64,000 nt of DNA from Vulcanimicrobiota bacterium. GTDB taxonomy: Bacteria; Vulcanimicrobiota; Vulcanimicrobiia; Vulcanimicrobiales; Vulcanimicrobiaceae. Both the position numbers and the translations under genes were made by a program. The stretch lies in the NCBI GenBank assembly GCA_963812155.1, contig CAWETW010000002.1, positions 416,001-480,000 of the forward strand, in the 5' to 3' direction. This document shows, one piece after another, positions 21,870 to 41,000 of this stretch; position 1 is the first letter of the stretch; each line of letters begins with the position of its first letter. A model generated the notes under the pieces. It searched no databases. It saw nothing but the letters and a program-made list of their open reading frames with translations, and was not told where the DNA came from.

Positions 21870-22274
21870 CTAGGCGCGGTCCCTGGCGATAAATCGCCGA
21901 GCTATCAAAATAGCCGCATAGTCGTCGACCGGCACGGGCGGCATCTGCAAGCCGGCCGGAACCAGACGGCGCCACCCCCGGGGCGGGTGTTCCCGGAAAT
22001 AGAGTTCGCGGGCCCTGCGCGAGGTCTCGAACTCGTCGACCAGGTGGATCGGGACGCCCAAGACGAGCAGCCGTTCCCGCAGCCCGGCGGCGCTGGTCCC
22101 GCGCCCGAGGGCGAGCGCCTCGACGCCGCCGGAAGCAACGAGTGCGGCCAGGCGTTCGACCAGATTCCCGGCGGGGACGACGCCCGATTCAATGACGGCG
22201 CCCGCCGGGTCGAGCAGGGCGAAGCCGGCCTTGTCCCGGCCAGGATCCACCCCTAGGACCGTCCCGGTGCTCAT
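21870..22274 (-). CDS. YqgF/RuvX-like RNase H-fold protein
   Basis: VLGVDPGRDKAG, ALG.GT, VDEFETS, VDDYAA. Confidence 0.88.
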   Translation of the reverse strand: MSTGTVLGVDPGRDKAGFALLDPAGAVIESGVVPAGNLVERLAALVASGGVEALALGRGTSAAGLRERLLVLGVPIHLVDEFETSRRARELYFREHPPRGWRRLVPAGLQMPPVPVDDYAAILIARRFIARDRA

Positions 22275-23234: not shown

Positions 23235-24344
23235 CTAGACCAGCGCCGCCCGGCGCAGCCGGGCGAGCCCGATTGCGGTGAACAGCAGGTTCGGCATCCA
23301 CGCCCAGAGCCACGCGATTGCCAGAAAGGCTTCGCCGAAGAACGAGCACACCGTCATGACGATATAGTAGACGAAGACGATTGCCAGCGACAATCCGAAC
23401 CCCAAGCTCGCGCTGCTGCCGCCGCTGCGTATCGTGCGCAGCCCGAAGGGAACCGCGATCAGAATGAACACGAAGCAGGCAAACGGTCGCGCGAGCTTTT
23501 CCTGATAGGTGGTGACGTACTTTCGCAGCTCGCTCTCCGTCAGTTGTCCCGTTCGGACGATCCCGGCGATTTGAGCGCGGCTCATGTTGTCGGGATCGTC
23601 GTTCTTGATGCGCTTGACGAGGTCGGTTGGATTTTGGCCGATTTCGACCTGCTGTTGCGGTATCGGCGGCTCGGCCAGCACCGAACCGTCGGGATTGAAG
23701 CGGTAGAGGCTGGAATCTTGCAGCAGCCACTTGTCGGCCGTGAACTCGGCCCGGTCGGCGAAGACGATTTGGCGCGGCCGGTTGCGACTGTCGTATTGAA
23801 TCAGCGTGACGTGCAGCAGCGCCTCTGAATTCGGTTCGTAGGCGGTGGCGACGGTGACTTGGCGCCCGCCGCCCGGTAGCGGCGCCGTCACGGTCAGGTC
23901 ACGCCCGTACGCGCTGGTGTGATTGATGACCGAACTTTCGATCTCGACGAGCTGGTCGTTGGCGTACGGAACGAGTGCTTCTTGCAAAAAAAGCGTTACG
24001 AACGACATCACGATGCCGACGGCCAGCAGCGGCATCACGATTCGGCCGAACGTCACGCCCGCCGCTTTCATCGCCGTCAGTTCGCTGTCGCTCGAAAGCC
24101 GCTGGATCGCCAGCAGGGTGCCGAGCAGCAATGCCATCGGGATCACCAGCACGATGTAGGCCGGCAACGACCACGCAAACACGAGCACTGCCGCCCACAG
24201 CGGTGCGTGCTCGCTGCTGACGAGTTTTCCGACGTTGAGGATTTCCGTCGCCGCGAAGATCAGCGTAAACGCGCCCAAGCCGAAACCGAACGGTCCCGCC
24301 AACTCGGTCAGCATGTAACGGTCGAGGATGGTGAACTTTAGCAA
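23235..24344 (-). CDS. LptF/LptG family LPS export permease
   Basis: ILDRYM..E, LS.DSELTAMKAAGV, periplasmic domain, W.PNLLF. Confidence 0.93.
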   Translation of the reverse strand: MLKFTILDRYMLTELAGPFGFGLGAFTLIFAATEILNVGKLVSSEHAPLWAAVLVFAWSLPAYIVLVIPMALLLGTLLAIQRLSSDSELTAMKAAGVTFGRIVMPLLAVGIVMSFVTLFLQEALVPYANDQLVEIESSVINHTSAYGRDLTVTAPLPGGGRQVTVATAYEPNSEALLHVTLIQYDSRNRPRQIVFADRAEFTADKWLLQDSSLYRFNPDGSVLAEPPIPQQQVEIGQNPTDLVKRIKNDDPDNMSRAQIAGIVRTGQLTESELRKYVTTYQEKLARPFACFVFILIAVPFGLRTIRSGGSSASLGFGLSLAIVFVYYIVMTVCSFFGEAFLAIAWLWAWMPNLLFTAIGLARLRRAALV

Positions 24345-24394
24345 GCGCCAAAGCGCCTTTTAAACACCCAACTACGCCGGCCACTCACTCCCTG

Positions 24395-25141
24395 TTAAAG
24401 CCTAAAGCCTTCGCCGAGATAGAACGTCCTCGCAATCGGAGAATCGAGCACTTCTTGCGCTGTGCCCGAGACTTCGATGCGCCCGTTATTCATGATGTAG
24501 GCGCGATCGACGATGGCGAGCGTCTCGCGAACTTGATGGTCGGTGATGAGAATGCCTAAGCCGCGGTCGCGCAGTTGGCGGATCATCGTTTGGATATCGG
24601 CGACGGCGATCGGGTCGATGCCCGTAAAGGGCTCGTCGAGCAAAAGAAACGCCGGTTCGATCGCCAGGGCGCGCGCGATCTCGACGCGCCGGCGCTCGCC
24701 GCCGGAAAGACTGTCGCCGCGAGCGTCGACGAAGGCCCGCAGTCCGAACTCCTCGAGCAATGCGGGCAATCGCCGCTCGCGCTCGTCGTGCGGTATGCCG
24801 TTCTGCTCCCAGATGAGCCGGATGTTGTCGCCGACGGAGAGTTTGCGAAAGATCGAGTTCTCCTGTGAGAGATACCCGACGCCGTTGCGGGCGCGCGCGT
24901 ACATCGGCGCCGACGTGAGGTCGATCTTCTTGGACTCCATGTCGAGCAGCACGGTGCCGCCGTCGGGCTTCACCAAGCCCACGACCATGTAAAACGTGGT
25001 CGTCTTTCCGGCGCCGTTCGGACCGAGCAGCCCGACGACTTCGCCGGTGCCGACTTCCGCCGAAACGCCGTTGACGACGGTGCGCTCGCCGTAGCGTTTG
25101 ACCAGCCCGCGCAGTTTAATCGACGATTCTTGACCGTTCAT
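24395..25141 (-). CDS. lptB: LPS export ABC ATPase
   Basis: [49 protein letters not shown]. Confidence 0.97.
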
Positions 25142-25695
25142 TGCATTCGCATGTGGGTGAGTGAGATGTCGGATTCAAAGCTCGAGCCGGTGCCGCGAAA
25201 ACCCTTGGGATCCACGATGACGACGTTGCCGTTGCCGCGCAGCGCTTGCCCGGTGCGATCGTAGACGAGCCGGTCGCAATCGAGCTGCATGCCGGTGCTC
25301 GTCTGCGCGTGAACCGGTTTCAGCAGCGTGATCGTATTGGCATCCTCGTCGAGAAGCGCTTGCGGCGCTACGGCGGTCATCGTTCTCCCGTTGCGATCGT
25401 GGAAAGTGACGTGAGCATCTTGGAAAACCGCTCGCGCCTTGCCCTGCGGGCCTTTGCTCTCGTAGGATTTTGCGATCAATTCATACTCGATGCGGTTTTG
25501 GACTTGCTGAATGATGCGTACGGGCCGGTGCGCGCTGCCCTGACCGGTGATGTGGAGAGACGGCGCGGCGGCACTGCGCGGCGGATTCGCGCGTGCCGAA
25601 GGGGCCGGCCTGCTGGCGGGAGCTTGAGGGTTGCACGCGCAGAGCAAGAGGACGGCCGCGAACCGGCCGGCCCGGCGAAGTTCGACGGCGTTCAC
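25138..25695 (-). CDS. lptC: LptC-like beta-jellyroll lipoprotein
   Basis: Lipobox LCAC; jellyroll-like C-terminal strands; immediately upstream of lptB; GTGA overlap. Confidence 0.72.
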
Positions 25696-26909
25696 CGTTG
25701 CCGATCGCCCGGCGGCTCCTTCGGACCGGCCGCGGCCAGCGCCAAGCCCATCGCCGGCAGCCAGAGTCCGAAGATGGCGATGCTCATCGTATCGATCAGC
25801 CCTTGTACGGCAATGCCGGCGAGTCCCGCCGTAACCGCGAGCGCAAGCACCGGCGACGCGGGCCCGCGCGACATCCGAGCGCGCAGTTCCGCCGCAAACC
25901 TCCACGCGAGCCAAGCGAACGCAGCCAACAGCAGTACGCCGCCTTCGGCGAAGAACGTAAGGTAGATGCTATGCGCGTGAAATGCGGTCGCGTCGGCATC
26001 CGGAACGTGCACGAGCGCGTAGAGCAACGGAAAGTCGAACGGTCCCACCCCGGTGAGCGGAAAGCGGTCGATGATTTGCAATGCAGCCTGCCAAATCGAG
26101 AGCCGCGTGTAGTCTTCGCTGGGATCGTGGTGGCTGTTAAAGAGCAGCAGCACGGCGAGCGCGCCTGCGGCAATCGCGAGCAGCGCGACGATGCGGCCGT
26201 GCCTGTTTTCACGCGAGCCCACCGCGACCAGAAACGCGGCCGCCGCCGCTGCGCCCATCCATCCGGCACGCGAAAACGTCAGCACCAGCGCAACCGCGCC
26301 GACACCCATTGCCGCCCATCCGAGCACGCGCAGCGCTCTCGGCGCAGCTTCGCGCGTGGCCGCGTAGGCGATCGGCAACATGACGATCAGATATGCCGCG
26401 AGCTCGCCGGGCAACACGAACGTACCGGTGGCGCGCCCGTGTTGCAACGCGTAGAGCGACGCCGGGGTGCGCGTCACGACCATCGCAATCGCCGCCGCCG
26501 CCGCGAGCGTCCCGGTCGAGAGGTACGCCCAGAAAATCGCGTCGGCGACGCGCGCTGCCCGATAGAAACGCAGCAGGGAACAGTGCCACAAAATACTCGT
26601 TCCGAAAATCCCGACGAACAGAAGACCGCGCAGCGGATCGAAGCCGGCCAGCGCGGCGAGCGTGGCCGCACCGAATCCCGCAAGCATCGGCAACAGCAAT
26701 GGCTGCGAGCGAGGCACGCGATATATGACGAGCAGCGCGCTCGAATAGACGACCAGCGCGCCAACGAGCGCCAGCACGGCGAGCGCGAAGGGCCTGGGCA
26801 CCACCGAAACGCCCGGATACGTGACGCTCGTCAGCACGATGAATGCCGGGTACAGCGGCAGCGCTGCGTAGACGGCCGCAAATCCCAGCGGAAGCGCGCG
26901 TTTCAGCAT
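25692..26909 (-). CDS. O-antigen ligase (WaaL/Wzy_C) family protein
   Basis: Multi-TM; TFSRAGW, R..IWQ.A...I...PLTGVG, HAHSIYL...AEGG. Confidence 0.88.
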   Translation of the reverse strand: MLKRALPLGFAAVYAALPLYPAFIVLTSVTYPGVSVVPRPFALAVLALVGALVVYSSALLVIYRVPRSQPLLLPMLAGFGAATLAALAGFDPLRGLLFVGIFGTSILWHCSLLRFYRAARVADAIFWAYLSTGTLAAAAAIAMVVTRTPASLYALQHGRATGTFVLPGELAAYLIVMLPIAYAATREAAPRALRVLGWAAMGVGAVALVLTFSRAGWMGAAAAAAFLVAVGSRENRHGRIVALLAIAAGALAVLLLFNSHHDPSEDYTRLSIWQAALQIIDRFPLTGVGPFDFPLLYALVHVPDADATAFHAHSIYLTFFAEGGVLLLAAFAWLAWRFAAELRARMSRGPASPVLALAVTAGLAGIAVQGLIDTMSIAIFGLWLPAMGLALAAAGPKEPPGDRQR

Positions 26910-28069
26910 TGCGCCGGCGTTGCAACCGCAGCGATGCGCTCGGCGACGCGCCGGGCCGCGCCGGACTCGCCGATGCGTGCTTTTCCGGCAGCCGCCATGC
27001 GCGCGCGACGCAACGGATCGTCGAGCAGCGCCGACACGCCGGCGGCCGCGCTTTCGCTCTCCGCCGGAAGCACCGTCATCGCGTCGCCGAGCAGGCCCGA
27101 TTGGCGTTTGCGGTACCAGCCCGAATCGCGTCCCGGCGGTTCGAACGCAACGACGGGTACGCCGGCAGCCGCGGCCGCTTCGTTTGCGGTGCCCGCCTGT
27201 CCGAGCACGAGCGCCGCGCGACGCAACAGCGGGCCGATCGCACCGCGCCACGCGCGGGCACCGATGCGCCCTGCGGACGCAAGCGTGAAGGGAATCGCTT
27301 CGTCCGTCGTTGCGGCCACATCCCAGCCGCAGCGGCGGGCAATCGCTTCGAACTCGCCGGCGTCGAGTCCGCGTGCGACCGAGAGCACGGAGCCGGCGTC
27401 GGGCCGAGCGTGCGCGACGCGCCGCGCGACGTCCAACAGGAATGCCGCGCTGGCGTACGCGCCGGCGCGACTTCCCGGAAAGAGCACGATCGGCTGCTCG
27501 AAACCTTCGACCGCGGCGCCGGCTCGAGCGTCGTCGGGGGTGGCGAAGAGATCGGCGATGACGTTCGCCGGCGGTTCGACGCGCAGGCCGTGTCGCTCGA
27601 GGCGCTGCGCCGTCGGCGCGTCGCGCACGAAACGTGCGACCGCGCGCCGCAGGAGCCGTTCTTCGAAGGCGCCGTAGGGCGCGACGTCGACGCTCTTCGC
27701 CGTGCCGACGAAGACCGCCGGCGTCCGCGCCTGCAGCGCCATCATTAAGGCGAACGCGTCGCCGACGGCAACGACCGCGGCGTACTCGCCGCGCACCGCG
27801 CGTAAGAAGCGCCGTTGCGCGAGCGTGAGCCCGAGCAGACCCGCCCGCACGTCGCGCACGATGTTGCGCACGTTTCCCATGGCGATCAACCCGCCGCTGG
27901 GCATCGCCGCGCGCGGCCCGACGTCGCGCAACGATTCGGACGGAACGTCGCCGACGAGCGCCAGGTGATCGAGCCCCAGGTTCGGGCGCAGCGCCGCGAG
28001 CTCGACCGCGATCCGTTCGGCAATCGCCGCCTCGCCGTGCCCGTTACTGACGAACAAAACCGCGGTCAT
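26903..28069 (-). CDS. Lipid-A-disaccharide synthase-related GT-B protein (TIGR03492-like)
   Basis: SNGHGE, PSGG, VGD, VGTAKS, PGSR, AGTANE. Confidence 0.82.
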   Translation of the reverse strand: MTAVLFVSNGHGEAAIAERIAVELAALRPNLGLDHLALVGDVPSESLRDVGPRAAMPSGGLIAMGNVRNIVRDVRAGLLGLTLAQRRFLRAVRGEYAAVVAVGDAFALMMALQARTPAVFVGTAKSVDVAPYGAFEERLLRRAVARFVRDAPTAQRLERHGLRVEPPANVIADLFATPDDARAGAAVEGFEQPIVLFPGSRAGAYASAAFLLDVARRVAHARPDAGSVLSVARGLDAGEFEAIARRCGWDVAATTDEAIPFTLASAGRIGARAWRGAIGPLLRRAALVLGQAGTANEAAAAAGVPVVAFEPPGRDSGWYRKRQSGLLGDAMTVLPAESESAAAGVSALLDDPLRRARMAAAGKARIGESGAARRVAERIAAVATPAQC

Positions 28070-28794
28070 GCCGCCGGCAGCAGCGGAACGAGCCCGAAGC
28101 CGGTCAGCGAGAAACGCGCGCGCGATGCGTCGTATGCGAGTTCGCTTCGCGACACGTAGCGTCCGTAAGGTCCGGCATGAACGATCGGTACGTCGCCGGC
28201 ATACTCCGGCTCGAAAAGCGTGTCGTGGCTGTGGCCGCCGAGGAGCAGATCGATCCGCGGGACGCGTTGCGCGAGCGTGCGGTCGAGACGCAAGCCGAGG
28301 TGCGAGAGCACGACCAGCACGTCGCCGCCGGGAATCGTGCGCGCGTACGGCTCGACCGCATCCCACGGGTCGAGAAATCGCCAGCCGAAAACGCGCTCCC
28401 AGGCGCTGCCGGCCGGATATTGCATGATCAGCAACCCGAGCACGTGGACGCGCACGCCTTCGCGCTCCATCGTAAGCGAACGCGCGAAGGGCAACGCACG
28501 TCGTTTCGTGTCGACGAGATTCGTGCAGACCAGGGGATGGCGCATGCGTGCCGCCCGCGCGGCAAGCAACGGAAAGAAATAGTGAAACTCACGGTTACCG
28601 ATGGCCTGAGCGTCGTATCCGGCGGAATCGATTTCGCCGACGATCGGCTCGTTGCGGTGATAGACGGTTTGACTGCCGCGCAACGAATCGCCGCAATCGA
28701 AGAGTAGTCCCGGCTGCGTTTCGCGTAGCGCGCGCAGGGGCGCGACGATCCCGCGGTGGTCGTGAAGATCCGACGTGTGATAGATGCGGATCAC
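28066..28794 (-). CDS. Calcineurin-like metallophosphoesterase (5'-nucleotidase N-terminal-like)
   Basis: TSDLH, DCGDS, GNRE, VLSHLG, GGHSH; GTGA overlap with lpxB stop. Confidence 0.9.
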   Translation of the reverse strand: MIRIYHTSDLHDHRGIVAPLRALRETQPGLLFDCGDSLRGSQTVYHRNEPIVGEIDSAGYDAQAIGNREFHYFFPLLAARAARMRHPLVCTNLVDTKRRALPFARSLTMEREGVRVHVLGLLIMQYPAGSAWERVFGWRFLDPWDAVEPYARTIPGGDVLVVLSHLGLRLDRTLAQRVPRIDLLLGGHSHDTLFEPEYAGDVPIVHAGPYGRYVSRSELAYDASRARFSLTGFGLVPLLPAA

Positions 28795-29924
28795 GCGGGC
28801 GGCCCCGCGGCCGCTGCGTTCGACTGCGCCAGCGCCACCGCGAAACGCGCGCAACGCTCCAGCGCGTCGGGCGGTCCGAGCGCTCGCTGAAGTTCGTCGA
28901 ACTGCCCGTACTGCCGTCCGGGATCGCGCAGCACCGCGTCCATGGCATCGGCGAGGCGTTCCGGCGTCGCTTCCTCTTGCAGCAGTTCCGGAACGACTTC
29001 GCGCTGCAGCACGAGATTCGGCAGCGTAATGAAACGGTGCTTGATCATCGTGCGCCCGTGCTTGACCAGCACCGGCGTTATGATGTAGAACGCGACCGCG
29101 GGGACGCCGCACAGCAGCGTCTCGAGCACGGCGGTTCCGGAGGCAACCCACGCGGCATCGGCATCCGCGATCGCGTCGATCGTTCCGCGCGCGATCTCGA
29201 TGCCGGTGAGATCGTACCGGCAGATCGTTTGCTCGATGCGCGACGTCGCACGATCGCCGGCCGCACCGAACACGCCGCGAAGCTGCGGGCGGCGCCGTTT
29301 GAGCAGCGCAAACGCACGCGCGAGCGCCGGCAGATGGTAGCGCAACTCACCGCTGCGGCTGCCCGGCAGCATCGCCACGGTGCCGCCGCCGGCGGGAGGC
29401 GCTTGACGCGCGGCGCGCCGCCGGTAGCGTCCGGCGAGCGGATGTCCGAAATACACGACCGGCAAGTTGAGGCTTTCGTAGAACGACGCCTGATGCGCAA
29501 AAGCGGTCATCGGCACCGCCACGCCTGCGACGGCGCGCGCCTTCTTCGGATTATCGAGCCACGTTCCGGGTGGAAAGACGTCGAGCACCGGCCCCGTGTA
29601 ACGCAGTCGCCGCAGCGTCATCGCCAGCCGCAAATTGAACACGCCGAAATCTACCAGCACGACAAGATCCGGCTTCGTCGCAACGAGATGAAAGGCCGTG
29701 CGCCACATAATGGCCAGCAGCTTCGGGATTCGCGGAATCGCCGCCAGCGGACCCATGCTCGCCCAACCCGTATGGTCGCGCCACAGCGTAAAACCCGCCT
29801 CCCGCATCGCTTGGGATCCGATGCCTTCGAATTGCGCGTCTAGGTCGACCTCGCGTATCGCTTGCGCGAGCAACAACGCGCTCGACTCTCCAGATGCCTC
29901 GCCGGTCGAAAAGAAATACCGCAC
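28791..29924 (-). CDS. lpxB: Lipid-A-disaccharide synthase
   Basis: GEASG, VDF..FN, GHPL, LPGSR..E, SGTAVLE, LPNLV....VPELLQ. Confidence 0.94.
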   Translation of the reverse strand: MRYFFSTGEASGESSALLLAQAIREVDLDAQFEGIGSQAMREAGFTLWRDHTGWASMGPLAAIPRIPKLLAIMWRTAFHLVATKPDLVVLVDFGVFNLRLAMTLRRLRYTGPVLDVFPPGTWLDNPKKARAVAGVAVPMTAFAHQASFYESLNLPVVYFGHPLAGRYRRRAARQAPPAGGGTVAMLPGSRSGELRYHLPALARAFALLKRRRPQLRGVFGAAGDRATSRIEQTICRYDLTGIEIARGTIDAIADADAAWVASGTAVLETLLCGVPAVAFYIITPVLVKHGRTMIKHRFITLPNLVLQREVVPELLQEEATPERLADAMDAVLRDPGRQYGQFDELQRALGPPDALERCARFAVALAQSNAAAAGPPA

Positions 29925-29981: not shown

Positions 29982-30749
29982 TCACTTTAGTATGCCGCGT
30001 TGGGATTCGGCCTCGACGAAGGCGACGATCTCGCGGCCGGGATCGGTCGTGACTTCGGCTTTCATCGCGTCGAGCGCTTTGGAAACCGTGAGTTTCGGAT
30101 CGTAGAGAATTTTGTAGCATTTTTTGATTTCGTTGCGCTCTTCGGGGGAGAAGGCGGCGCGGCGAAGGCCGACGCTGTTGAGACCGTAGGGGCGTGCCGG
30201 ATTACCCTCGATGAGAAAAAACGGCGGCACGTCCTTCGTGAGTTTGGTCGCTCCGCCGACCATCGCGTATCGTCCGATACGCGTGAATTGGTGGACGCCG
30301 GCTTGGCCGCCGATGGTTGCGTAGGCGCCGACGTCGACGTGTCCGGCCAACTGCGCGAGATTACTCATCGTCACGCCGTCGGCGATCGTGCAGTTGTGCG
30401 CGATGTGCACGTAGGCGAGCAGCAAACAGTCGTCGCCGACCGCGGTCACTTCGTCGTGACCCGTTGCGCGCTGGATGCTCACGTACTCGCGCAGCACCGT
30501 CCGGTTTCCGACGCGAGTGAAGGCCCGTTCGCCGCTGTACTTGCGATCTTGCGAGGCGGCGCCGATCGTCGCAAACGGATAAACGTGGCAATCCTCGCCG
30601 ATGCACGTCCAACCGTTGACCACGACGTGCGACTGCAGCACCGTGCGGTCTCCGACGGTGACGTGTTCGCCGATGATGCAGTACGGCCCGATTTCTGCTC
30701 GCCTGGCGATATCCGCGCCGGGGTGAACGATTGCGGTCGGATGGATCAC
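29982..30749 (-). CDS. lpxA: UDP-GlcNAc acyltransferase
   Basis: IHPTAIV, hexapeptide repeats, QD.KY.GE, HIAHNC, LAGHV, VHQF. Confidence 0.97.
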   Translation of the reverse strand: MIHPTAIVHPGADIARRAEIGPYCIIGEHVTVGDRTVLQSHVVVNGWTCIGEDCHVYPFATIGAASQDRKYSGERAFTRVGNRTVLREYVSIQRATGHDEVTAVGDDCLLLAYVHIAHNCTIADGVTMSNLAQLAGHVDVGAYATIGGQAGVHQFTRIGRYAMVGGATKLTKDVPPFFLIEGNPARPYGLNSVGLRRAAFSPEERNEIKKCYKILYDPKLTVSKALDAMKAEVTTDPGREIVAFVEAESQRGILK

Positions 30750-31219
30750 GAGTGCAGAACCGACGCATCGGCGCCGAACATGCGCCGGTCGGAAACGATC
30801 GAGAAGCTGAGCACGGCAGAGCACGCGAGTTGTCCCTCGACCGTTGCCACGGTCGAGACCCAGCCGATGTTGCGCCGGTGACGGATCATCGCCACCTCCA
30901 TGTCGAGGCGATCGCCCGGTATGACGGGCCGCCGGAACTTCGCCTTATCGATGCCGGTCAGATACGGCGTCTTGCGCGAGAACTCGCCCGGTTCTAGGAC
31001 GACGGCACCGCCGAGCTGCGCCATCGCTTCGAGCATGTACACGCCCGGCAATAGCGGATTTCCCGGAAAGTGGCCGTTGAAGACGGGCTCGTTGAACGTG
31101 ATGTTCTTGAAACCGCGCGCGCGCACCATCGGCTCCAACTCGGTGATGCGATCGATCAGCAAAATTGGATATCGGTGCGGCAGCACTTCGAGAATTTGCC
31201 GGATGTCTAAGGCTCCCAC
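30746..31219 (-). CDS. fabZ: 3-hydroxyacyl-ACP dehydratase
   Basis: LPHRYP.LLIDR, GHFPG.P..PGV...EAMAQ, FRRPV.PGD. Confidence 0.97.
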   Translation of the reverse strand: MGALDIRQILEVLPHRYPILLIDRITELEPMVRARGFKNITFNEPVFNGHFPGNPLLPGVYMLEAMAQLGGAVVLEPGEFSRKTPYLTGIDKAKFRRPVIPGDRLDMEVAMIRHRRNIGWVSTVATVEGQLACSAVLSFSIVSDRRMFGADASVLHS

Positions 31220-32109
31220 GCAATCTCCTTCGCGGCCTCGCGCAGCGCACGCGTGGCCCGTGCGTGCATTTCGTGGCCGCTCTTTACGGCGACGATCTCG
31301 AATTGCGGCCACGCTCCGAGCAGTGCGAAATCGCCGATGAGATCGAGCACCTTGTGACGCACGACTTCGTTAGACCAGCGCAGCGGCTGCATCGGTCCTT
31401 CGGGGGTAAACACCAGCGCGTTCTCGAGGCTCGCCCCTCGCGCGAGCCCGCGCGCGTGCAAGCCTTCGAGTTCGTGCAGGTAGCCAAAGGTGCGGGCGCC
31501 TGCGATCTCGCGCTCGTAGAGTTGCGCGTCGACCTCCGCGTCGAAATACTGCGTTCCTACCGGCGGCGCGAATTCGGCGACGAATCGCACCCGGAACGCC
31601 GGTGCGGGAAGTGCGGCCACCAAACGGTCTCCCGCGCGCAGCACGTACGGCTGCGTCAAGGTCACGACGGTGCGCGGACGATCCTGCATCGTCACGCCCG
31701 CGCGCTCGATGGCCTCGACAAAGTTCTGCGCGCTGCCGTCGCAGATCGGAATCTCGGGTCCCTCCACCGCAATCCGCGCATTGCTCACGCCGCTCGCGAA
31801 CAAAGCGGAGAGTAAATGTTCGGTTGTGGAAACCGAGGCGCCGTCGAGTCCGACGACGGTCGCGCGCGACGTGTCCACGACATTCTCCGCAACGGCCGGT
31901 ACGCTGACCGTGACGCCGGGATCGCGCGGCGAACGCAACAGAAAGACGATGCCGCTGCCGGGTTCGGCAGGCTGGACGTCGACGGTTGCGCGTTCGCCCG
32001 TGTGAAGCCCGACGCCCTCGAAGCGCATCGGCGCCGCCAGCGTCGCCTGCTTGCGCTCGCTACGATCGTTCGGGTTCGATTGCGCGCTCCAGTGCGTCGA
32101 CACGAGCAA
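31207..32109 (-). CDS. lpxC: UDP-3-O-acyl-GlcNAc deacetylase
   Basis: GVGLHTG, TEHLLSAL, ARTFG, RHK.LDLIGD, KSGH; start uncertain. Confidence 0.96.
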   Translation of the reverse strand: MLVSTHWSAQSNPNDRSERKQATLAAPMRFEGVGLHTGERATVDVQPAEPGSGIVFLLRSPRDPGVTVSVPAVAENVVDTSRATVVGLDGASVSTTEHLLSALFASGVSNARIAVEGPEIPICDGSAQNFVEAIERAGVTMQDRPRTVVTLTQPYVLRAGDRLVAALPAPAFRVRFVAEFAPPVGTQYFDAEVDAQLYEREIAGARTFGYLHELEGLHARGLARGASLENALVFTPEGPMQPLRWSNEVVRHKVLDLIGDFALLGAWPQFEIVAVKSGHEMHARATRALREAAKEIAWEP

Positions 32110-33085
32110 CGAGCTTTGGCAGCTTGCGAATCATGACCTCTCGCCGCAGCTCGTCGCGGTGTTCGCGCGCCGGATTCCCCGAAACCGTCGTGCCTTCGGC
32201 GACGTCGCCCCACACGCCGGATTGACCGGCGACGGTCGCACGAGAACCGATCGTCATGTGTCCGCGCGTGCCGACTTGACCCGCAATTTTTACGTAGTCG
32301 CCGATGACGGTCGATCCCGCCAGCCCGGTGAGCGACGCCAGCGCGCAATGCTTACCAATCCGGCAGTTGTGCCCGATTTGCACGAGGTTGTCGATTTTCG
32401 TTCCCGTACCGATATGCGTGCTGCCGGTTTGCGCGCGATCGACGCACGAGTTCGCACCGATTTCCACGTCGTCGTCGAGCACCACGTTGCCGACCTGCGG
32501 GATCCGTTCGAGACGGCCCTCGACGAACGCCCAGCCGAAGCCTTCGCTTCCCACCACGCTGCAGGGGTGCAGCACGACGCGGTTGCCGATGCGGCAGCGA
32601 TCCATGACGCACGCGTGCCCGTGCAGCCACGCCGATTCGCCGATCGAAACGTCGTCGCCGACGTACGCGCCCGGCCCGATGATGCTGCCCGCACCGACGG
32701 CCGTTCGCCGGCCGACGTACGCACCGGCACCAATGTAGACGGCCTCGCCGACGCGCGCGTCCGCCTCGACCACCGCGGTCGCGTGCACGAACGGTCCTTG
32801 CGGACGCGGCGGCCGCAACGCTTCGAGCAGCCGCGCGAGCGCGAGCCGCGCGTTTTCGACGACGAGCAACGGCTTTTCCGACTTCGGTAGAGATACCGAC
32901 GCATCCACGAGCACCGCCGCCGCACGGCTTCGCAATGCGGTGGCGAGATAGCGCTGGTCGGTCGCGAACGTCAGCGTTTCGGAATCGGCGTCATCGATGC
33001 CCGCAATGCGCGCGATCGGAAGCGCGCCGTCGCCTATCACGCTGCCGCCGACTCGCCCGGCCAGTTCGTTGAGCGTTCCTAACAT
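32060..33085 (-). CDS. lpxD: UDP-3-O-acylglucosamine N-acyltransferase
   Basis: GFG.A, IPQVGNV, DDVEIGAN, KIDNLVQIGHN. Confidence 0.97.
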   Translation of the reverse strand: MLGTLNELAGRVGGSVIGDGALPIARIAGIDDADSETLTFATDQRYLATALRSRAAAVLVDASVSLPKSEKPLLVVENARLALARLLEALRPPRPQGPFVHATAVVEADARVGEAVYIGAGAYVGRRTAVGAGSIIGPGAYVGDDVSIGESAWLHGHACVMDRCRIGNRVVLHPCSVVGSEGFGWAFVEGRLERIPQVGNVVLDDDVEIGANSCVDRAQTGSTHIGTGTKIDNLVQIGHNCRIGKHCALASLTGLAGSTVIGDYVKIAGQVGTRGHMTIGSRATVAGQSGVWGDVAEGTTVSGNPAREHRDELRREVMIRKLPKLVARVDALERAIEPERS

Positions 33086-33102
33086 TGCGACGTATGCAGC
33101 GT

Positions 33103-33519
33103 TTAGCCGGCCGGCTTCGGCGTCGCTTTTTCGGTGATGTTCAGCGATTTTTCGACGTCGCCGGTGATGTCGACTCCGCCGTAGCCGATGCCTTCGCGCG
33201 TGACCACGAGCTGCAACTTTCTCTGCTGGGCGATCTTGGAGGACGCGTCGCGAATTTGCTGCGTGAGCTGTTCGGTTATTTTCGCGTACTTTTGCTGCAT
33301 GGCAAGCGTGGCGCGTAGTTTTTGCCCGCGATTGCCGCGGCCGCCCGCGATCGTCCGCTCGTCGGCAAGCAGCTGGTTCTGGTAGTTTTGGTATTCCGGC
33401 CAATTGGCGACGATGCGCTGCACGTCGACCAGTCCGATCGGACTGGACGCTCCGCAGCCGGTCAGCGAAAGGGACGCGCCGAGCGCGGCCAGCGTAAGTA
33501 CGAATATCTGATGTTTCAC
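33103..33519 (-). CDS. OmpH/Skp-like lipoprotein
   Basis: Lipobox LTGC; IGLVDVQRI...GGVDITGDV. Confidence 0.75.
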   Translation of the reverse strand: MKHQIFVLTLAALGASLSLTGCGASSPIGLVDVQRIVANWPEYQNYQNQLLADERTIAGGRGNRGQKLRATLAMQQKYAKITEQLTQQIRDASSKIAQQRKLQLVVTREGIGYGGVDITGDVEKSLNITEKATPKPAG

Positions 33520-34814
33520 TCGTGTAAGCTTTCGACGTCCTTGACGAGATCGTTGGTGAGGTCGTAACCGCCGGCGGCCGCCGCAACGCGATCGAGCACG
33601 ATACTGAATCCGCGCTCTTTCGCGATGCGCGCCGCTTCGCGCATTACTTGGTCGACGATCTGCTTGTAGAGGGCATCTCGCCGCCGTTGTAAGGCTTCGA
33701 GTTCTTTGGCCGCAGCTCCGGTCGCTCCCACGTCGGCGCCGTGAAGGGCCGCGAACTGGCGGTCCAAATCGGCCTTCGTCGCCTGATAATCCGCAACCGT
33801 CTTGCGGGCATCGGTCTGAAATTGCATGGTGAACTGGCGATGGATGCCGGCCAGCTTGTCCCGTACGCCCGGCGGCAAGTTGGGTGGAAGCGCTGGCGGC
33901 CCTAAGCTGCGCAGTTGGGCGCCCACCTCGTTCCGGCGCTCGAGCAGCTTGGCTTGCGTCTGGCCCGCAATCGCGCCGGCCTGCGTCCGTACGGCCGCGC
34001 CGGTTTGGGCGCTCAGCTGCGCGCGGTAGGCGCTCAAGGTCGCGGCGTCGGCCCGGCGCGCGGCGTCGAGCTGCGAACTCTCCTTGGAGTTGATCGACTC
34101 GAGCTGGCCCTGTAACTGCTTACGCGTGGCTTCGTCGAGCGCGAGATTTGAAAGCCGGGTCTTAATCGCCAGACGCTGCGCCGCGTCGGCTTGTGACAGT
34201 CTCAGCGAGAGATCCGTCTCGTTCTGTTGCAGCTGCGCCGCTTTGGCCGAATATTTTTGCGATGCCTGCTGCTGCAGTTGGCGGGCAATCGCGGACGTCG
34301 CGGCGTTGTTCTGCGCGACGACGCTCTGCTGGTAGGCCATGAAGTCTTGGTTTGCGGCGGCGGCGGCCTGGCGCGCTTGCTGCGCCGACGTCGCACTCAT
34401 CTGCCCGGCCGCGTACGCGCCGCCTTTGATGCCGGCGGCGCTCAACGCCGCAGCGACTGCTTGGCGTTCCCGGCCGGCGTACTGCTGCTGCTGTTGCGCG
34501 AGAATCGCGTTGGCCCGGTTCTGCGCGTCGTGCAGCTGGCGGTTGAGATCGGTGGTCTGCCGGGCGATCTGCGACGCGTTGAGCGGCACGCGCGGCGCGG
34601 CCGCCGCGAGGTTGATTGCGGCGATGCCGTCGTCGAGTTGCGTGAGCTGCGGGTAGAGCGGGTGGTGCTTGACGACTTCGTCGAGCCGGATGTAGCCGGT
34701 GCCGCGAATGGAAGTTGAATGAACGTTTACGCAGCCGCCGAGAAAAAGGGTCGCGAACGCCAGTGCGAGCGCAGCATAGCGGCGGCTCTTACTTGCCGAG
34801 CGCATTTTGGACAT
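33516..34814 (-). CDS. OmpH/Skp-like lipoprotein with long coiled coil
   Basis: Lipobox LGGC; GYI.LDEVVKHHP at N-terminus, GGYDLTNDL at C-terminus; Gln/Ala-rich helical middle. Confidence 0.7.
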   Translation of the reverse strand: MSKMRSASKSRRYAALALAFATLFLGGCVNVHSTSIRGTGYIRLDEVVKHHPLYPQLTQLDDGIAAINLAAAAPRVPLNASQIARQTTDLNRQLHDAQNRANAILAQQQQQYAGRERQAVAAALSAAGIKGGAYAAGQMSATSAQQARQAAAAANQDFMAYQQSVVAQNNAATSAIARQLQQQASQKYSAKAAQLQQNETDLSLRLSQADAAQRLAIKTRLSNLALDEATRKQLQGQLESINSKESSQLDAARRADAATLSAYRAQLSAQTGAAVRTQAGAIAGQTQAKLLERRNEVGAQLRSLGPPALPPNLPPGVRDKLAGIHRQFTMQFQTDARKTVADYQATKADLDRQFAALHGADVGATGAAAKELEALQRRRDALYKQIVDQVMREAARIAKERGFSIVLDRVAAAAGGYDLTNDLVKDVESLHE

Positions 34815-35596
34815 CCGCCGTGATGTCCGTTCCTCCGTAGATCACGTCGGCGCGGTCGACGACGAGCAGCAGTTTTTTGCTTGCGGCGACGTCGGCGGTC
34901 GCGCGTTTCGTCTGATCGACGAACGGCTTGAGGAGCTGATCCTGTTTGTCGGAGACGGTCTTGTTAAACTGCTGGTAGAGTTGCTGCTTGTCGGTATTGT
35001 TTTTCGCCTGCGCGACCTTCGGCGCGAAGAGCGCCCGCTGAGTGTTTGCGAACTGGTTCATCTCGTCGTTGGCCGTCTTGACTTTCGGCACGTTGTCGAG
35101 CACGTTCTGGTCGACGAAGCCGATCTCCGAGGGCGGCGGGCTGGCGGCCGGCGGCTGAATCGCCTGCGAACTCATGAAGAGCGTCTCGACGTCTTTGGTG
35201 ACGTCTTGGCCGCCGTAGACGACGATCCGCTTGTCGACGACCACCGTCAGGTTGTGCGCGCCTGCGACTTGCGCGATGGCGAGTTGCGCGCGCTGAAAGA
35301 GCGGCCCCACGATCTCGCGCTGCTTGTCGGTGTACTGCTGCTGGAACTGCATCGAGATGCGCTGCTTGTCGGCGTCGCTGTTCGCGCCGCTTCACCGACG
35401 AGTTGAACTGTGCGTCGAGCTGCGCCTTGTATGCCGCCAGCGTGCGATTGGCGTTGGCGAAAACCGGCATGTTTCCAAGTTCGGCTTGATCGACGAATCC
35501 GACGTCGGTGAGATCCGCCGCAATCGCGGCGGGTGCGAGCGACGCCGCCAACGTGAGCGCGAGGGTCGCAAGCGATGGAATCGATCGAACGTTCAT
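34789..35596 (-). CDS. Tandem two-domain OmpH/Skp chaperone; apparent one-base frameshift near 35390
   Basis: ORF 35596 (signal peptide, VGFVDQ) joins ORF 35352 (YGGQDVT, IGFVDQ, YGGTDIT) if one base is removed at ~35390. Confidence 0.8.
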
Positions 35597-35623
35597 ACTT
35601 TGCCCCTTAGTGTCGCGTTTTCA

Positions 35624-37889
35624 CTAGAAACTCTGGCCGATGCCGAAGCTCGTGTGCGTTCCGTATGCGCCGCGCGCGAAGTCGATGCGCACGGTACGCA
35701 ATCCGAACTGCGGCACGTCGAACCGTATGCCCGCGCCGTAGTCGCCGTAGAGCGCCCAATTGGCCGGATAACCGACGATCCGGTTCGTGTACGGATTCAG
35801 CAGCGGATACGCACCGCGAATCCGATAGTCGAGTTCGTCGACGAAGACGGCCAGCGTAATGCGGCGGTCGAGCGCCAGCGGCTGGCGCAACTCGATCTGT
35901 CCCGAAGCCGGCGTCGGTTGCGTAGAAGACTTGGTTGTAGCCGCGCATCTGCTGGTCGGAGAACGTGTACAGATTGTTCGGCGGAATGACGCCCGTGGAT
36001 GCGTCGAGCAACAGGTGCACGCCGAGCGTTGCGGATTTGAGCACCGGGAAAAACTTCGCAATGCCCAGCGACGGTTGCGTGAACTGGAAGTTCGAACCGA
36101 GCGCCGGCATCGAGAACGTTCCCGACAAATAGGCGTTGGCGCCGTGGCGCGGATTGAACGGATCGTCGAGAGTGTTGGTCGAGAGGTTCAGCGTCGCCGT
36201 GTTGAGCTTGTACGGTGCGCCGGTGTTGACGTTGGCGATCGACGACGCCGCAATGCCGAACGACCCACCGTAGGAGTTGACGGTGGAGTTGACCGGTCCG
36301 GGCGTCGGGCCGACGAAGATGTTCGGCTGGTTGCCTTGGAAATAAAATGGCGACGGCACCGTGGTGTTGTAGCGAATCGTTTGAGCGCTCAGGGCGAACG
36401 AAAGAATCGTATAGTCGCTGAGGCGGCGTCCGATGTTGCCGGACGCGCCGATCGAACTCGACGTATTGGTCGCGACGATGCCGCCGATCTGGGCGCTGTT
36501 GGTACCGGGATAGAGCGTTACCGGAACCGGCGCCGGCGTGCCGCCGATCGACGGGATGCTGGGAGACGAAGCCGTGACGCCGTACACCGGATAGTAGTAC
36601 GTGTTGTTGTTCGCGAACAACTGCGCGCCGACACTGTATTTCTGCGATTGCGGCGAGTTGCCGAGATACGGAACCGCAACGGCGATCTGAGCGACGCCCG
36701 TACGCGCGCCCTTCTCGAACTGAACCGATCCGGAGTTGCCGGTACCGTGCAGGTTGCTGTCGGAGAAGCCGAGCGTGCCGTAGAGCCCTTGCCCGGTGAG
36801 TCCGCCGGAGTATCCGAAACCGACCGAGGCTTGCGCGGTGCGCTGTTCGGTCACGTGCCATACCAGCGTCACGTCCTGCGGCTTCTTCGGATCGGGGCCG
36901 GGCTTGACGTCGGGCTCGACCTTCGAGAAGTAGCCGAGCGAGTTGAGCCGTTCGTAGTCGCGCTTGACCGCGTCCGTGTTGAGCACCATTCCCGGCACCT
37001 CGCGCAGCACGCGCCGGATGACCTGATCCTTCGTGCGCGCGTTGCCGGTGATTTCGACGATCGAAATGCGCGCGACGTAGATATTGTATTTGACGTTCGC
37101 GGTGCCCGCCTTGTGATCGATCGACGACGGGTCGATGCCGCCCTCGAAGTTTCCGAGCTCCAGCCGATACTTGTCTTCGTAGAGTTTCTGCAGCGCTTTG
37201 AAGTCGGCATCGCGCACCGCGTCGGAGTAGATGGTCCCAGGCTTCAGCGTCAACGCCGGAAGAATCAGCGGCGGCGGCAGCAGCGGATCGCCGCCGATGA
37301 TGATTTCTTTGACGACGAGACCCTCTTGAATCACCAGCGTCAGGACGCCGCTCTTCGGATCGAGGTTGAGATCCTTGACGTGCGTGGGGACTTGTCCGCC
37401 GTATCCGATGCGCTCGTAGTAGTTGTTGATCTTCAAAACGTCCTGGCGAAACGTGTTCGTGTTGAAGACTTGACCGACGGAAAGATCCATCAGTGCCAAC
37501 AGCGTATCGCTGGGAACCTTTTGGTTTCCGTTAAAGACGATCTTGGTGAGTACCGGATTTTCCACCACGCGATAGGTGATGGCGATGCCGTTGGGACGCT
37601 GGCGCACGAGCGGCGGCGCGATGTCGGCGAAGTAACCGAGCGCGTTGATGCGCGCCAAGTCGTCCTGCACGATCTTGGGATCGTACGTTGCACCGGGTCG
37701 CGCAGCAATGACGGCCATGATCGTCGATGTCGGGACGTGCAGATTTCCGGTGACGTCGACCGAGACGATCTTCGGGGGAGTAGCCGCAGCGGCGCGCTGG
37801 GTCGCCGGAACGGCCGCGACGACGAGAGCGAGCAGAGCGCCCGCCCCGCACGCCAGTGCGCGAAGGGCGCGCCGAAGGTCAACGGTCAT
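35624..37889 (-). CDS. bamA: BamA/Omp85 outer-membrane assembly factor; apparent one-base frameshift near 35902
   Basis: POTRA repeats (GN.., LGYF), QMRGY loop motif; the alternate frame supplies the barrel end DYGAGIRF...SFGIGQSF. Confidence 0.9.
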
Positions 37890-38063
37890 GCGAAAAAAGT
37901 TCGTCCTCGACTTCTGATAGAGAGGCGCTGACGTCGTCAGCGACGGGCCGCCGGCTCCACGCGCCTGTTCTGACCCGGGTCGCCCTGTTCGCCCTGCCCG
38001 ACTTGGGTCCTTGCCTGCCGGATGAGGCTCCGATTGGAGTTCGATGCGGCATGCGTTGAGACA

Positions 38064-41000
38064 CTACAAATATCGCTGTAAGCTGAAGCTGAAGCCGTTG
38101 GTTCCCAGCAACGGCAGCAGGAGCAACTGGTTCGAGGAACCCAGCACCGTCACGGGCTGCTCGAAGAGTTTAATGGGGCCCGTTTGGTAGTAGAAGCTCA
38201 GCGTTGCCGACGTGAAGGCGCTGGGATTGTACTTGACGCCGAACGACTGGATCTGTGGCAATCCAAAGGTTGTGGCATAGACGGCACTGACCGATTTACC
38301 GAGCAGGCGAGTCGCCGAAACGCCGACGTTGCCATAGTAGCCGAGCGTCAGGTTGACGCTCGAGAGCCCGAGGCCCGAGCCGATGGCGTTTTCGAGCGGC
38401 GACAGCAAGCCGGCCGCGAACTGCGCGTTGAGCAGGTTGAACGCCTCTTGTCCTGCCGTAATCGTTCCGTTGTGCGTCTGATAGGCGCCCGGCGGCAAAG
38501 GCGACAGCGCTCCGTAGGGCGTGATTCCGCCCGGCGACTGCACCTGGTAAGGCGATTGCGAGTTGAACGCGATGCCGTTGATGAAGCCGCCGAACGGCGC
38601 GATCATCGAGAGCACCTGCTCCCTCGTATATCCCGGCGGATTCGACGTGAACGCAATCTTCAGCCCTTGAATTTGTCCGTCAACCGTAATGGTGATGTCC
38701 GCGGATCCGTACGGATTGCGCGCGCGGTCGGGATCGGGGTTGACGACGTTCGTCGTCGCCACCGCGTGAATGGTCGGCGCAATGCCGTCGCTCGGATCGA
38801 ACGCGACGCTGCCCTCGCGCACGCGGAAGGCACGATCGAAATAGGTGAGCGTGCCGCCCGTCGACGTAATCGAGCCGCCCAGCTGCGGCGACGCCAGCGT
38901 ACCGCCTAAGTGCACCGTGCCGGCAGCCCCGATGTCTAGCCCCGCGCCGTATCCGCTGCCGCGCACCCGCACGTTCTTGCCGGCGGTCGCATTCAAATCG
39001 AAGCCGACCGGTGGAAACGGCAGCGCGGTGGTGCCGGGCGCGTTCGCAGCGGCTTGTATGAACGCCGAGAAGGGCAGCGTCGCGTCGTTGAGCGTCAGCT
39101 TGCCGGAGAGCAACGCCGTCGACGCGGGCGTCTTCGTGAGCGTGAACCCGGCATCCAGCGAGCCGCTGCCGTAGGCGGGCAGGTTCAACTGCGCGCCGCG
39201 GGCGGTCACCTTCGCCGAGAACGCGTAGCCTGCGCTTGCCCCGGCCCCCTTTGGGAGTGTCAGGTTCCCCGACCCGGTCATCGTGCCCGAGCCGAGCCGC
39301 GCGAAGACTCGATCGAACGTTGCGCCGGTACGATTGAAAACCAGACGGGCGGTCGCGTCGGAAATCGGCGTACGCTCGAGATCGCTCGCGTACGATCCCT
39401 TCGAAAGTTGCGCGTGCCCAACGACGATCGGCGCGCGAATCGTCCCGCTCAATCCGAAGTGACCGTCGATCGTTCCGCCAAGCTTCGTGTTGTTCCCGAG
39501 GGCGGCGTCGAAGACGCCGGGATCCAAGCCCACGACGTCGACGTCGACGTTCAACGGCTGATCCGGCGGACCGATGCGAAACGGCGACAACTCGAGCGGC
39601 AGCGACCCCGCCAACGACGCCTCGCCGCGCGCGAACGTTGCGCCCGCGTTCGAGAGCACGAGCGTGCGCCCGTGCAAGCGCACCTGTCCGAAGAGCGATT
39701 CGATGCCGACGTCGTACGCGCGCACGTTCGACGCGTCGAGCCCTGCCACGAACGTCGGCGATGCGAACGTGCCGCCGACTTGAAGGGTCGATTCGAAAGA
39801 ACCCGCGACCGGAATTTTTACGCGTGCGAGTTGATACACCAGGCGGGGAAGATCGTCGGTGGCGGCGTGAATCTGCAGATCGAGCGGGTCGCGCGGTCGC
39901 AGTCCGAGCGATCCGCCGGCCGTCGCGGAGAGACCGGGGGTTACTAATTGCGCGCGGTCGACGACGACGCGCCTCCCGCTCGAATGCACGCTCGCCGTCG
40001 CAGTATCCAGCGTCAGCGGCCCGAGCGTGCCGCTTTCGACCGACGCGTCGCCGCGCAGCGCAAACTGCGGATAGCGTCCGCGCAACATCGCGCTTCCCGA
40101 CGCCTTGCCGGTAATCGGCACGGTTGGAAATCCCAACGCCGCCACCCACAGCGAGAGGTCGAGATTACTGACGGTCCCGTGCAAATCGTAGCGCGAACGG
40201 ACGAGCGTTTCGTAGAGACTCGCCTCGGGCGAAAAACCGACCGACCCGCCGGCGCGCAGCCGTCCCTGGTCGCCGCCGATTGCGAGCGACCCGTCGACTA
40301 CGTTGCGCGCGCTCGACCACGACGCATAGGTATCGCCGATGGGAAGATTGCGGTAGCGGAACGACCGCACGGTTACGTTGCCGCTGGTCGAGAGGCGGTT
40401 GGCGCTCACCGCGGCCGCGATTTTGATCGATCCGTTGCCGTCGAGCGTGTCGCCCGTATCGAAGTAATCGTTGAAGTCGGAAAGATCCGCGTGCGGGGCG
40501 CTGACGTCGAGCGTGCTATTGCCCGGAGTGGTCGCGGCGTCGAACGCAACGCGCGTGCTCGCCACCTGCACGTGTCCGTCGCGCGCGCCGACGCCGCGGG
40601 TATCGGCGGCCAGCATCGCGGCGCCGTCGACGAAGCGCAGACCGTTGATGGAGCCGGCGGGTACCGCAACACGGCCGGCTACGGTGGGCGCGGCAGCAGC
40701 ACCGCCGACGGTGAGGTTTGCATTGAACGTTCCTTCGGTCGCGTAGTTGGGAAGATGGAACGAGCGCAGCGCGCCGGCGATATCGGCGGCCGGAACGTCG
40801 GCGGTGAGCGCGTAGCGCGGACCGTTCGACGCGAGCCCACCCAGGCTGCCGCCGATGCGCGCGTACGTCGTTCCCAGCGCGCCGAGCACGCGATGCAAAT
40901 ACGCCGTCTGGCCCGTCAGCTGCACGTCGCCGTTGCCCGACAGCGCGAACTGCGCTACGCGTCCGCCGGCAATCGTCACGCCGCCGCCGAACGACGGAAG

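Follow-up and report, generated by a model that had tools for sequence, protein, structure and literature searches.

In this work, we analysed a stretch of 64,000 nucleotides, referred to here as the window, from a Vulcanimicrobiota bacterium (assembly GCA_963812155.1, contig CAWETW010000002.1, positions 416,001-480,000 of the forward strand; coordinates below are those of the window unless a locus is named), and focused on a stand-alone arginine-type metallophosphoesterase that is a candidate UDP-2,3-diacylglucosamine pyrophosphatase. The gene (28066..28794, minus strand) is read from 28794 to 28066 and encodes 242 amino acids with the fold of a 5'-nucleotidase N-terminal domain, and the plus strand of the same interval is broken by stops. 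Its GTG start shares the GTGA at 28791-28794 with the stop of lpxB, and its stop shares the ATGA at 28066-28069 with the ATG of the next gene. Both overlaps had been described in the original prediction, an earlier annotation made from the sequence alone, and both were found. The whole cluster lies on the minus strand, and Pfam and NCBIfam matches gave its order as tamB, bamA and three skp/ompH genes (33103..43310, the upstream part of an outer-membrane cluster), lpxD (32060..33106), lpxC (31207..32079), fabZ (30746..31210), lpxA (29982..30755), lpxB for lipid A disaccharide synthase (28791..29924; PF02684, E 4.7e-55), the phosphoesterase, an LpxB-related GT-B glycosyltransferase of the TIGR03492 type (26903..28069; 200 bits against a cut-off of 219), an O-antigen-ligase-like membrane protein (Wzy_C, 25692..26906), and lptC, lptB and lptF/G for lipopolysaccharide (LPS) transport (23235..25695); the starts of lpxD, lpxC, lpxA and the ligase-like gene are approximate. 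The lpx genes had been named correctly beforehand, while fabZ had been omitted and the glycosyltransferase left unidentified. As described below, the phosphoesterase is a member of a real and conserved family of LPS-cluster hydrolases in Eremiobacterota (the window's phylum, also called Vulcanimicrobiota) and Armatimonadota. The window's own genome assembly, labelled G000, is 83.85% complete.

The motifs HTSDLH, DCGD, GNRE, LVCTNL, VLSHLG and IDLLLGGHSH are all present in the protein, including those by which it had been likened to UshA-type enzymes. With 22 bits, the match to Pfam Metallophos (PF00149) lies just over the cut-off of 21.5, all NCBIfam matches fall in the UshA/CpdB/SoxB/NadN group, and the top NCBIfam and PDB matches are the N-terminal domains of 5'-nucleotidase, UshA and SoxB; the profile of the phosphoesterase matches E. 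coli UshA at E 4.5e-39. The predicted structure (pLDDT 97.5) is a calcineurin-like beta-sandwich with a dimetal site, and it superposes on the Thermus 5'-nucleotidase 2z1a with Z 27.7 and a root-mean-square deviation of 2.5 A over 231 residues. The metal ligands D9, H11, D36, N67, H165, H188 and H190 were conserved without exception across a diverse set of members (66 of 66). In a tree of 121 sampled rows, which is a quick tree with flagged long branches and an unfinished careful search, the stand-alone proteins group together (79 rows, SH-aLRT 90) and divide into an Eremiobacterota side (support 82) and an Armatimonadota side (98), and the LpxH, LpxH2-like and YaeI/YkuE-like rows stand on a separate branch (SH-aLRT 98). 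Fold match and tree position both support the nucleotidase lineage that had been proposed, and the family is, on this evidence, derived from a 5'-nucleotidase N-terminal domain. Because the family and LpxH occupy separate branches and show no detectable kinship beyond the superfamily, the arginine of motif III is not an inheritance from LpxH.

This arginine, Arg68 (codon 28591-28593), belongs to the motif III G-N-R-E at 28588..28599 on the minus strand and stands at the position held by His117 in UshA and by arginine in E. coli LpxH (GNRD). Its conservation in relatives had been named as a check, and GNRE was found at 60 of 60 loci and in 120 of 120 listed homologues; three Armatimonadota members that seemed to be without it also have GNRE, the search pattern having hit an earlier loop. 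We also aligned 357 domains to the family profile, a set with near-copies and some repeated loci whose rows are therefore not independent. Arginine occupies the position in 246 of them (242 stand-alone proteins and four fusion or extended records), histidine in 107 (82 long and 25 short, the short ones being split nucleotidases, mostly from Bacteroidota, plus P0250/P0280), and another residue in four; no two-domain 5'-nucleotidase in this alignment carries the arginine. Further positions separate the two types. Where nucleotidases read GNHEFD the window protein reads GNREFH, and the position three residues past the motif III histidine is Asp in 86 of the 107 histidine-type rows and His or Asn in 225 of the 246 arginine-type rows. 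In 241 of the latter, position 80 holds Arg or Lys, a basic residue specific to the family, and the helix following motif III has a net charge of +3.3 in 54 Eremiobacterota rows and +2.6 in 50 Armatimonadota rows, compared with 0.0 in 103 nucleotidase rows. Judged from these alignments, Arg68 is no chance substitution.

The sequence starts within strand beta-1 itself, three residues short of the core of the motif I strand, as its homologues do, and it has no signal peptide as judged by alignment and hydropathy rather than by a signal-peptide predictor. Its highest 19-residue hydropathy window is 0.94, and there is no transmembrane segment. The C-terminal nucleotidase domain is absent from the protein, and a profile of 44 such domains found none in the incomplete assembly of the window's genome. 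The lack of an export signal and of a C-terminal domain, noted from the start, thus holds.

The original prediction was built on a missing step, namely that no recognisable lpxH or lpxI accompanies the other lpx genes, and this gap was searched with LpxH, LpxI and LpxG models (Cdh and Nudix families were not among them). The contigs of the window's genome gave no LpxH, LpxI or LpxG match, and the remaining metallophosphoesterases encoded there are CpdA-like, YfcE-like and of the TIGR00282 type. The gap holds in the Eremiobacterota sample as well: LpxI and above-cut-off LpxG were found in none of 301 Eremiobacterota and none of 131 Armatimonadota genomes. Weak LpxG-like matches of the YkuE/YaeI type occur in 30 of the 301 Eremiobacterota, all outside the window's class with its 232 genomes, and in 79 of the 131 Armatimonadota. 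LpxH was absent from all six Eremiobacterota searched for it, that is, the window's genome and five single-contig relatives, the rest of the phylum sample lying outside this search; above the cut-off it occurred in none of the 131 Armatimonadota, where nine weak LpxH2-like matches are of the histidine type and all lie in genomes that have the family.

A search with the phosphoesterase gave matches in 297 of 301 Eremiobacterota genomes, mostly in single copy in the window's class, and a few low-scoring matches may be nucleotidases. The three tallies over 301 Eremiobacterota genomes include ten unpublished genomes (G264, G213, G248, G238, G178, G246, G275, G231, G128 and G233), and no locus analysed here stems from them. 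A genus (g71) and a further genome (G008) were at one point taken to lack the gene; their wider loci hold it, the scores being split by insertions. In Armatimonadota, the family profile matches 108 of 131 genomes at E<=1e-35, a few of these matches being two-domain nucleotidases; LpxB is present in 130 of the 131, WaaA in five of five tested, and LpxK was also seen. The window's genome gave no match to the LpxK and WaaA models, a search made in this genome only among the Eremiobacterota, and no tblastn match for kdsB, kdsC or kdsD, as in cyanobacteria. The published LPS gene table of the armatimonadote Fimbriimonas ginsengisoli gives lpxA/B/C/D/K and kdtA and no hydrolase (PMC4072686). This species and, in the window's phylum, Vulcanimicrobium alpinus (PMC9758169) are both available in culture and non-pathogenic.

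Synteny with lpxB had been proposed as a further check. In the window's class, lpxB lies directly upstream of the phosphoesterase in 36 of 36 loci and the TIGR03492 gene downstream in 35, the single miss being a contig end. Other Eremiobacterota classes usually have the order lpxC, fabZ, (DegT aminotransferase), Gfo/Idh/MocA oxidoreductase, lpxA, lpxB, then the phosphoesterase and TIGR03492, with a second LpxB-like glycosyltransferase and a PEMT/ICMT methyltransferase as optional genes after lpxB; when longer stretches around the phosphoesterase were read, 16 of 19 loci had lpxB at a distance of no more than about 5 kb. In one genome (G002) the phosphoesterase stays with lpxB, and no TIGR03492 gene occurs within the 16 kb read. 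The expected linkage to lpxB was therefore borne out in both sets of loci, although the tie to TIGR03492 proved tighter and Armatimonadota have kdsC as the neighbour instead. Among the 30 best Armatimonadota loci, all with GNRE, 21 hold a gene for an ArnT-like GT-C glycosyltransferase (PMT_2); other loci of this phylum have kdsB-kdsA-kdsD before the phosphoesterase. We infer an ancestral order of lpxB-msbA-waaA-lpxK-kds-phosphoesterase, which would resemble that of diderm Firmicutes (PMC5007114) without lpxI, and from which Eremiobacterota would have lost the block for the sugar Kdo (3-deoxy-D-manno-octulosonate). If so, the adjacency of phosphoesterase and lpxB would be secondary.

We favour the reading that the family is a convergent fourth UDP-diacylglucosamine pyrophosphatase, that is, a lipid X-forming enzyme, and put its probability at somewhat better than even, roughly 0.55. 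Cleavage of this substrate is preferred because both phyla need the reaction and neither has an enzyme assigned to it. The arginine and the missing C-terminal domain make the protein look like a pyrophosphatase or diesterase that binds its substrate in some other way than nucleotidases do. The enzyme would be a cytoplasmic dimetal pyrophosphatase, probably acting at the membrane surface, and would cleave UDP-2,3-diacylglucosamine (or a diamino analogue) to lipid X and UMP, lipid X then being the acceptor supplied to LpxB. Arg68 would hold the beta-phosphate of the substrate, and the alpha-phosphate would be attacked by a hydroxide bound to metal. Its origin would lie in a 5'-nucleotidase N-terminal domain before the split of Eremiobacterota and Armatimonadota, with loss of the signal peptide and of the nucleotide-binding C-terminal domain and a gain of the motif III arginine independently of LpxH. 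Nothing that computation could have brought against the original prediction was encountered: no canonical lpxH, lpxI or lpxG elsewhere combined with loss of the lpxB linkage, and no position within the known LpxG or LpxH clades.

However, a number of observations weigh against this reading. The helical lid of LpxH is missing: H165 and H188 of the window protein are separated by only 22 residues, compared with 80 between His114 and His195 of Pseudomonas aeruginosa LpxH, in which the insertion 119-173 buries the acyl chains (PMC5016852). A cluster inside the family (P0250/P0280) carries histidine in motif III (GNHEFF), which appears to be a reversion. Within 1.5 kb of the gene in other Eremiobacterota classes, TIGR03492 is found at 22 of 24 loci and lpxB at 7 of 24, and the phosphoesterase-TIGR03492 pair lies away from lpxB in two loci and is inverted in three. 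Two clean in-frame fusions of the phosphoesterase with TIGR03492 (P0176 and P0282, one record each) were also obtained in a search of longer proteins; they stand on separate well-supported branches and are evidently independent. Five apparent LpxB-phosphoesterase fusions (P0281, P0298, P0348, P0129 and P0140) and two further TIGR03492 joins (P0284 and P0290) were set aside as probable frameshift artefacts, since similarity is lost part-way. The Armatimonadota gene mostly adjoins kdsC rather than lpxB (kdsC is adjacent in 24 of the 30 best loci), and in 19 lower-scoring loci kdsC was found in 7 and no LPS gene among the references used in 8. Researchers have also described the same lipid X gap in Cyanobacteria and Dictyoglomi (PMC3087551), and no member from either group is among the homologues listed, a listing that did not include a family-profile search of cyanobacterial genomes; thus, the gap can be filled in other ways.

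A further objection is raised by the 23 of 131 Armatimonadota that keep lpxB and have no family match at E<=1e-35. When these genomes, together with two weak cases, were searched again at 1e-6, 21 of 25 remained without a match, and only G378 among the other four has a true member; since candidates pass through a pre-filter in this search, strongly diverged copies may escape it. In an LpxB tree, the 23 genomes comprise one single genome and two clades, each of 11 genomes and with support 100, and several are near-closed with lpxA, msbA and waaA beside lpxB. In ten of them the GT-C gene follows kdsC with no family member between, and the neighbourhoods read around lpxB and kdsC, as opposed to whole genomes, hold no substitute hydrolase. 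LpxG-like matches are not enriched where the gene is missing (16/23 vs 63/108), and an anti-correlation of the family with LpxG-like or LpxH2-like proteins was not found across the 131 genomes. Five gene-less genomes carry 12-18 other metallophosphoesterases, and 20 of 20 with a readable motif III, among 30 loci fetched, are of the histidine type. The two clades (L227-L246 and L365-L367), with lpxB, mostly msbA and often waaA beside it, have no LpxH, LpxI, above-cut-off LpxG or arginine-type enzyme and form a remaining hole in the pathway. As a separate observation, many Armatimonadota LpxB proteins (L148, L150 and others) give a two-piece Pfam match in one frame, with an insertion near model position 240. 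Taken together, the recruitment of a nucleotidase-lineage enzyme to make lipid X is partly supported, by ancestry, arginine, gap and linkage, while the movement and fusion with TIGR03492, the kdsC neighbourhood in Armatimonadota and the 23 losses had not been foreseen.

The main alternative is that the enzyme helps the first core-sugar step rather than LpxB, as a hydrolase of nucleoside diphosphates or their sugars that clears the nucleotide released by a glycosyltransferase or trims a donor pool; its partner would be TIGR03492 in the Kdo-less Eremiobacterota and the Kdo pathway in Armatimonadota. The two independent fusions, the movement of the pair as a unit, the position of the Armatimonadota gene beside kdsC/kdsD/kdsA/kdsB, a pathway missing from the window's genome, and the dispensability of the family in two clades all agree with this, and nucleotidase ancestry and a diphosphate-suited arginine are also compatible. 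We nevertheless regard it as possible but not probable. The C-terminal domain, on which the nucleotide specificity of UshA and CpdB depends (PMC7922932), has been lost, the donors would differ by phylum (CMP-Kdo vs a UDP-sugar), TIGR03492 is almost confined to one of the phyla and missing near the G002 gene that stays with lpxB, and the lipid X gap would be left open in both phyla. A role as Kdo-8-phosphate phosphatase was rejected, KdsC itself being encoded beside the gene in most Armatimonadota and the window's genome being devoid of kdsB/C/D matches.

The adjacent glycosyltransferases in both phyla, TIGR03492 in one and GT-C in the other, would also suit an enzyme of lipid A remodelling that removes, on the cytoplasmic side, a phosphate (1- or 4'-) or a substituent in phosphodiester linkage before TIGR03492 or an ArnT-like GT-C adds a sugar. 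The basic and hydrophobic elements on the surface around the active site fit such a role, and cyanobacterial LPS is described as free of phosphate and Kdo (PMC3087551), with Synechococcus having TIGR03492. The loss of the motif III histidine disfavours monoester hydrolysis, though, and the GT-C gene is retained where the phosphoesterase is lost. GT-C enzymes work in the periplasm, and the phosphoesterase has no export signal. The LmtA-like genes of some clusters, discussed below, would moreover need the 1-phosphate. We consider this explanation unlikely.

At least as unlikely is a housekeeping cytoplasmic pyrophosphatase or phosphodiesterase, for the turnover of nucleotides, CDP-alcohols or cofactors, that merely rides in an envelope super-operon. 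The gene can be lost without change in the neighbouring LPS genes, it adjoins trpC, coaX or DUF1385 in some Armatimonadota, and isolated N-terminal domains of nucleotidases retain a broad phosphodiesterase activity (PMC7922932), but it stays with lpx genes in all Eremiobacterota classes sampled despite rearrangement, accompanies kds genes in a second phylum, and was fused to a glycosyltransferase twice. Finally, half of a split 5'-nucleotidase, of which Bacteroidota offer examples with stand-alone N-terminal domains, or an inactive relic is very improbable, because those split forms keep GNH[DE]FD, no C-terminal domain was detected in the window's genome, and all seven metal ligands are invariant.

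The TIGR03492 protein deserves attention in its own right. It folds as a GT-B enzyme whose best, moderate matches are UDP-GlcNAc 2-epimerases (TM-score ~0.6), and it shares the motifs PGSR and GTA with LpxB. It is present in the window's genome, Synechococcus and Deinococcus, in none of which WaaA was found, and in the Deinococcus control it occurs without LpxB; among Armatimonadota it is present in 1 of 131 genomes (G406), which has no KdsC. As a lead, it is possible that TIGR03492 is a Kdo-independent first core-sugar transferase that replaces WaaA. A second LpxB-like glycosyltransferase without a Pfam family was also observed (G000:C3:38608-39822, locus L145; L305 7904-10348; L315 8357-10327). 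In other classes it comes right after lpxB, in three other genomes it is fused to a PEMT/ICMT methyltransferase, and in genus g71 it accounts for the long LpxB (816-845 amino acid frames), an LpxB fused to this glycosyltransferase and not to a hydrolase.

The Gfo/Idh/MocA oxidoreductase, with or without the DegT aminotransferase, lies between fabZ and lpxA in L305-L324 of the other classes and is absent from the window cluster; we take these enzymes to be GnnA/GnnB-like, and their presence suggests a diamino-glucose lipid A in these classes. A PEMT/ICMT membrane methyltransferase is encoded beside lpxB in both phyla (L308 6981-7616; L345 2262-3212), and its homologue in the window's genome lies elsewhere (G000:C2:32856-33368). 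These methyltransferases are presumably LmtA-like, LmtA being kin to ICMT proteins, and their presence in the clusters of other classes suggests a 1-phosphorylated lipid A. Putting these pieces together, we tentatively speculate, at clearly less than even odds, that the fourth lipid X enzyme was ancestral to both phyla and placed, within the outer-membrane cluster of Terrabacteria, where diderm Firmicutes have LpxI, and that the Eremiobacterota enzyme acts with LpxB and TIGR03492, the latter (perhaps with the second LpxB-like glycosyltransferase) substituting for WaaA by adding the first core sugar. This would amount to an LPS assembly free of Kdo and LpxK, and TIGR03492 could do the same in cyanobacteria.

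Two further features of the window were noted. The bamA gene is apparently frameshifted: relatives match the frame 35607-37889 to residue 663 only, and the Phe-ending C-terminus sits in the frame 35624-36061 (window ~35600-36060, minus strand), probably owing to a sequencing indel. A DUF3084 gene and a RuvX-like gene (21870-23215, minus strand) follow lptF/G, and DUF3084 occupies the same place in the loci of three relatives.

Among the early steps of lipid A synthesis, only the formation of lipid X is carried out by several unrelated enzymes, and in a number of deep-branching diderm phyla all three known ones are missing. If the favoured reading is true, a fourth solution would close the lipid A gap for two whole phyla, and the LpxH-type arginine would have been reached independently from a nucleotidase scaffold and would reflect a chemical need of the substrate rather than a mark of lineage, and there would be a bearing on LPS synthesis in ancestral Terrabacteria. 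If it is false, there is still a hydrolase family of LPS clusters, so far undescribed, that is linked to an LpxB paralogue itself uncharacterised. The literature searched, with most subscription journals outside reach, holds no description of the family and nothing on TIGR03492. The family is thus apparently undescribed and is a good but unproven candidate for the fourth lipid X enzyme.

Compared with known systems, the family resembles LpxH most in its presumed function, as LpxH catalyses the reaction proposed here. Both share the seven ligands of a calcineurin-like dimetal site, an arginine in motif III, a length of about 240 residues and a cytoplasmic location. In LpxH, this arginine binds the phosphate of lipid X; it binds the beta-phosphate during the attack of a metal-bound hydroxide on the alpha-phosphate, and the change from histidine is said to be unique to LpxH (PMC5016852). 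However, kinship is detectable only at the superfamily level (profile E 0.016, hhalign probability 0.7%), neither the window protein nor 66 members match the LpxH models TIGR01854 and NF003743 at E<=0.01, and LpxH belongs to beta- and gamma-proteobacteria whereas this family belongs to Terrabacterial phyla; the fold-search matches listed are 5'-nucleotidases without LpxH among them, from which we draw nothing. The direct ancestor is rather the N-terminal domain of UshA, CD73, CpdB and SoxB. UshA also cleaves the pyrophosphate bonds of UDP-sugars, and the His117Ala change in CpdB abolishes hydrolysis of 3'-AMP (PMC7922932), while the histidine at the same place in CthPnkp is critical for Mn2+-dependent monoesterase and not for diesterase activity (PMC2190708). 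Unlike these enzymes, the family has neither signal peptide nor C-terminal specificity domain, has His117 replaced by arginine and a basic residue added, and sits in LPS clusters. LpxG of Chlamydia (NF033458; YkuE/YaeI type) offers a precedent for the recruitment of a separate calcineurin-like lineage for lipid X, and it has GNHD and an N-terminal transmembrane helix (PMC4807358). Its motifs GDxxDR and GNHD differ from GDSLRG and GNRE in the window protein, which has no such helix, and neither this protein nor the 66 members match NF033458. LpxI (PF06230), which fills the step in the diderm Firmicutes cluster lpxACDIBK/waaM/waaA/kdsABCD (PMC5007114), is unrelated in family and mechanism, and the window protein has no PF06230 match. 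The family therefore belongs to none of LpxH, LpxG, LpxI and the complete 5'-nucleotidases, although its mode of action may be that of LpxH.

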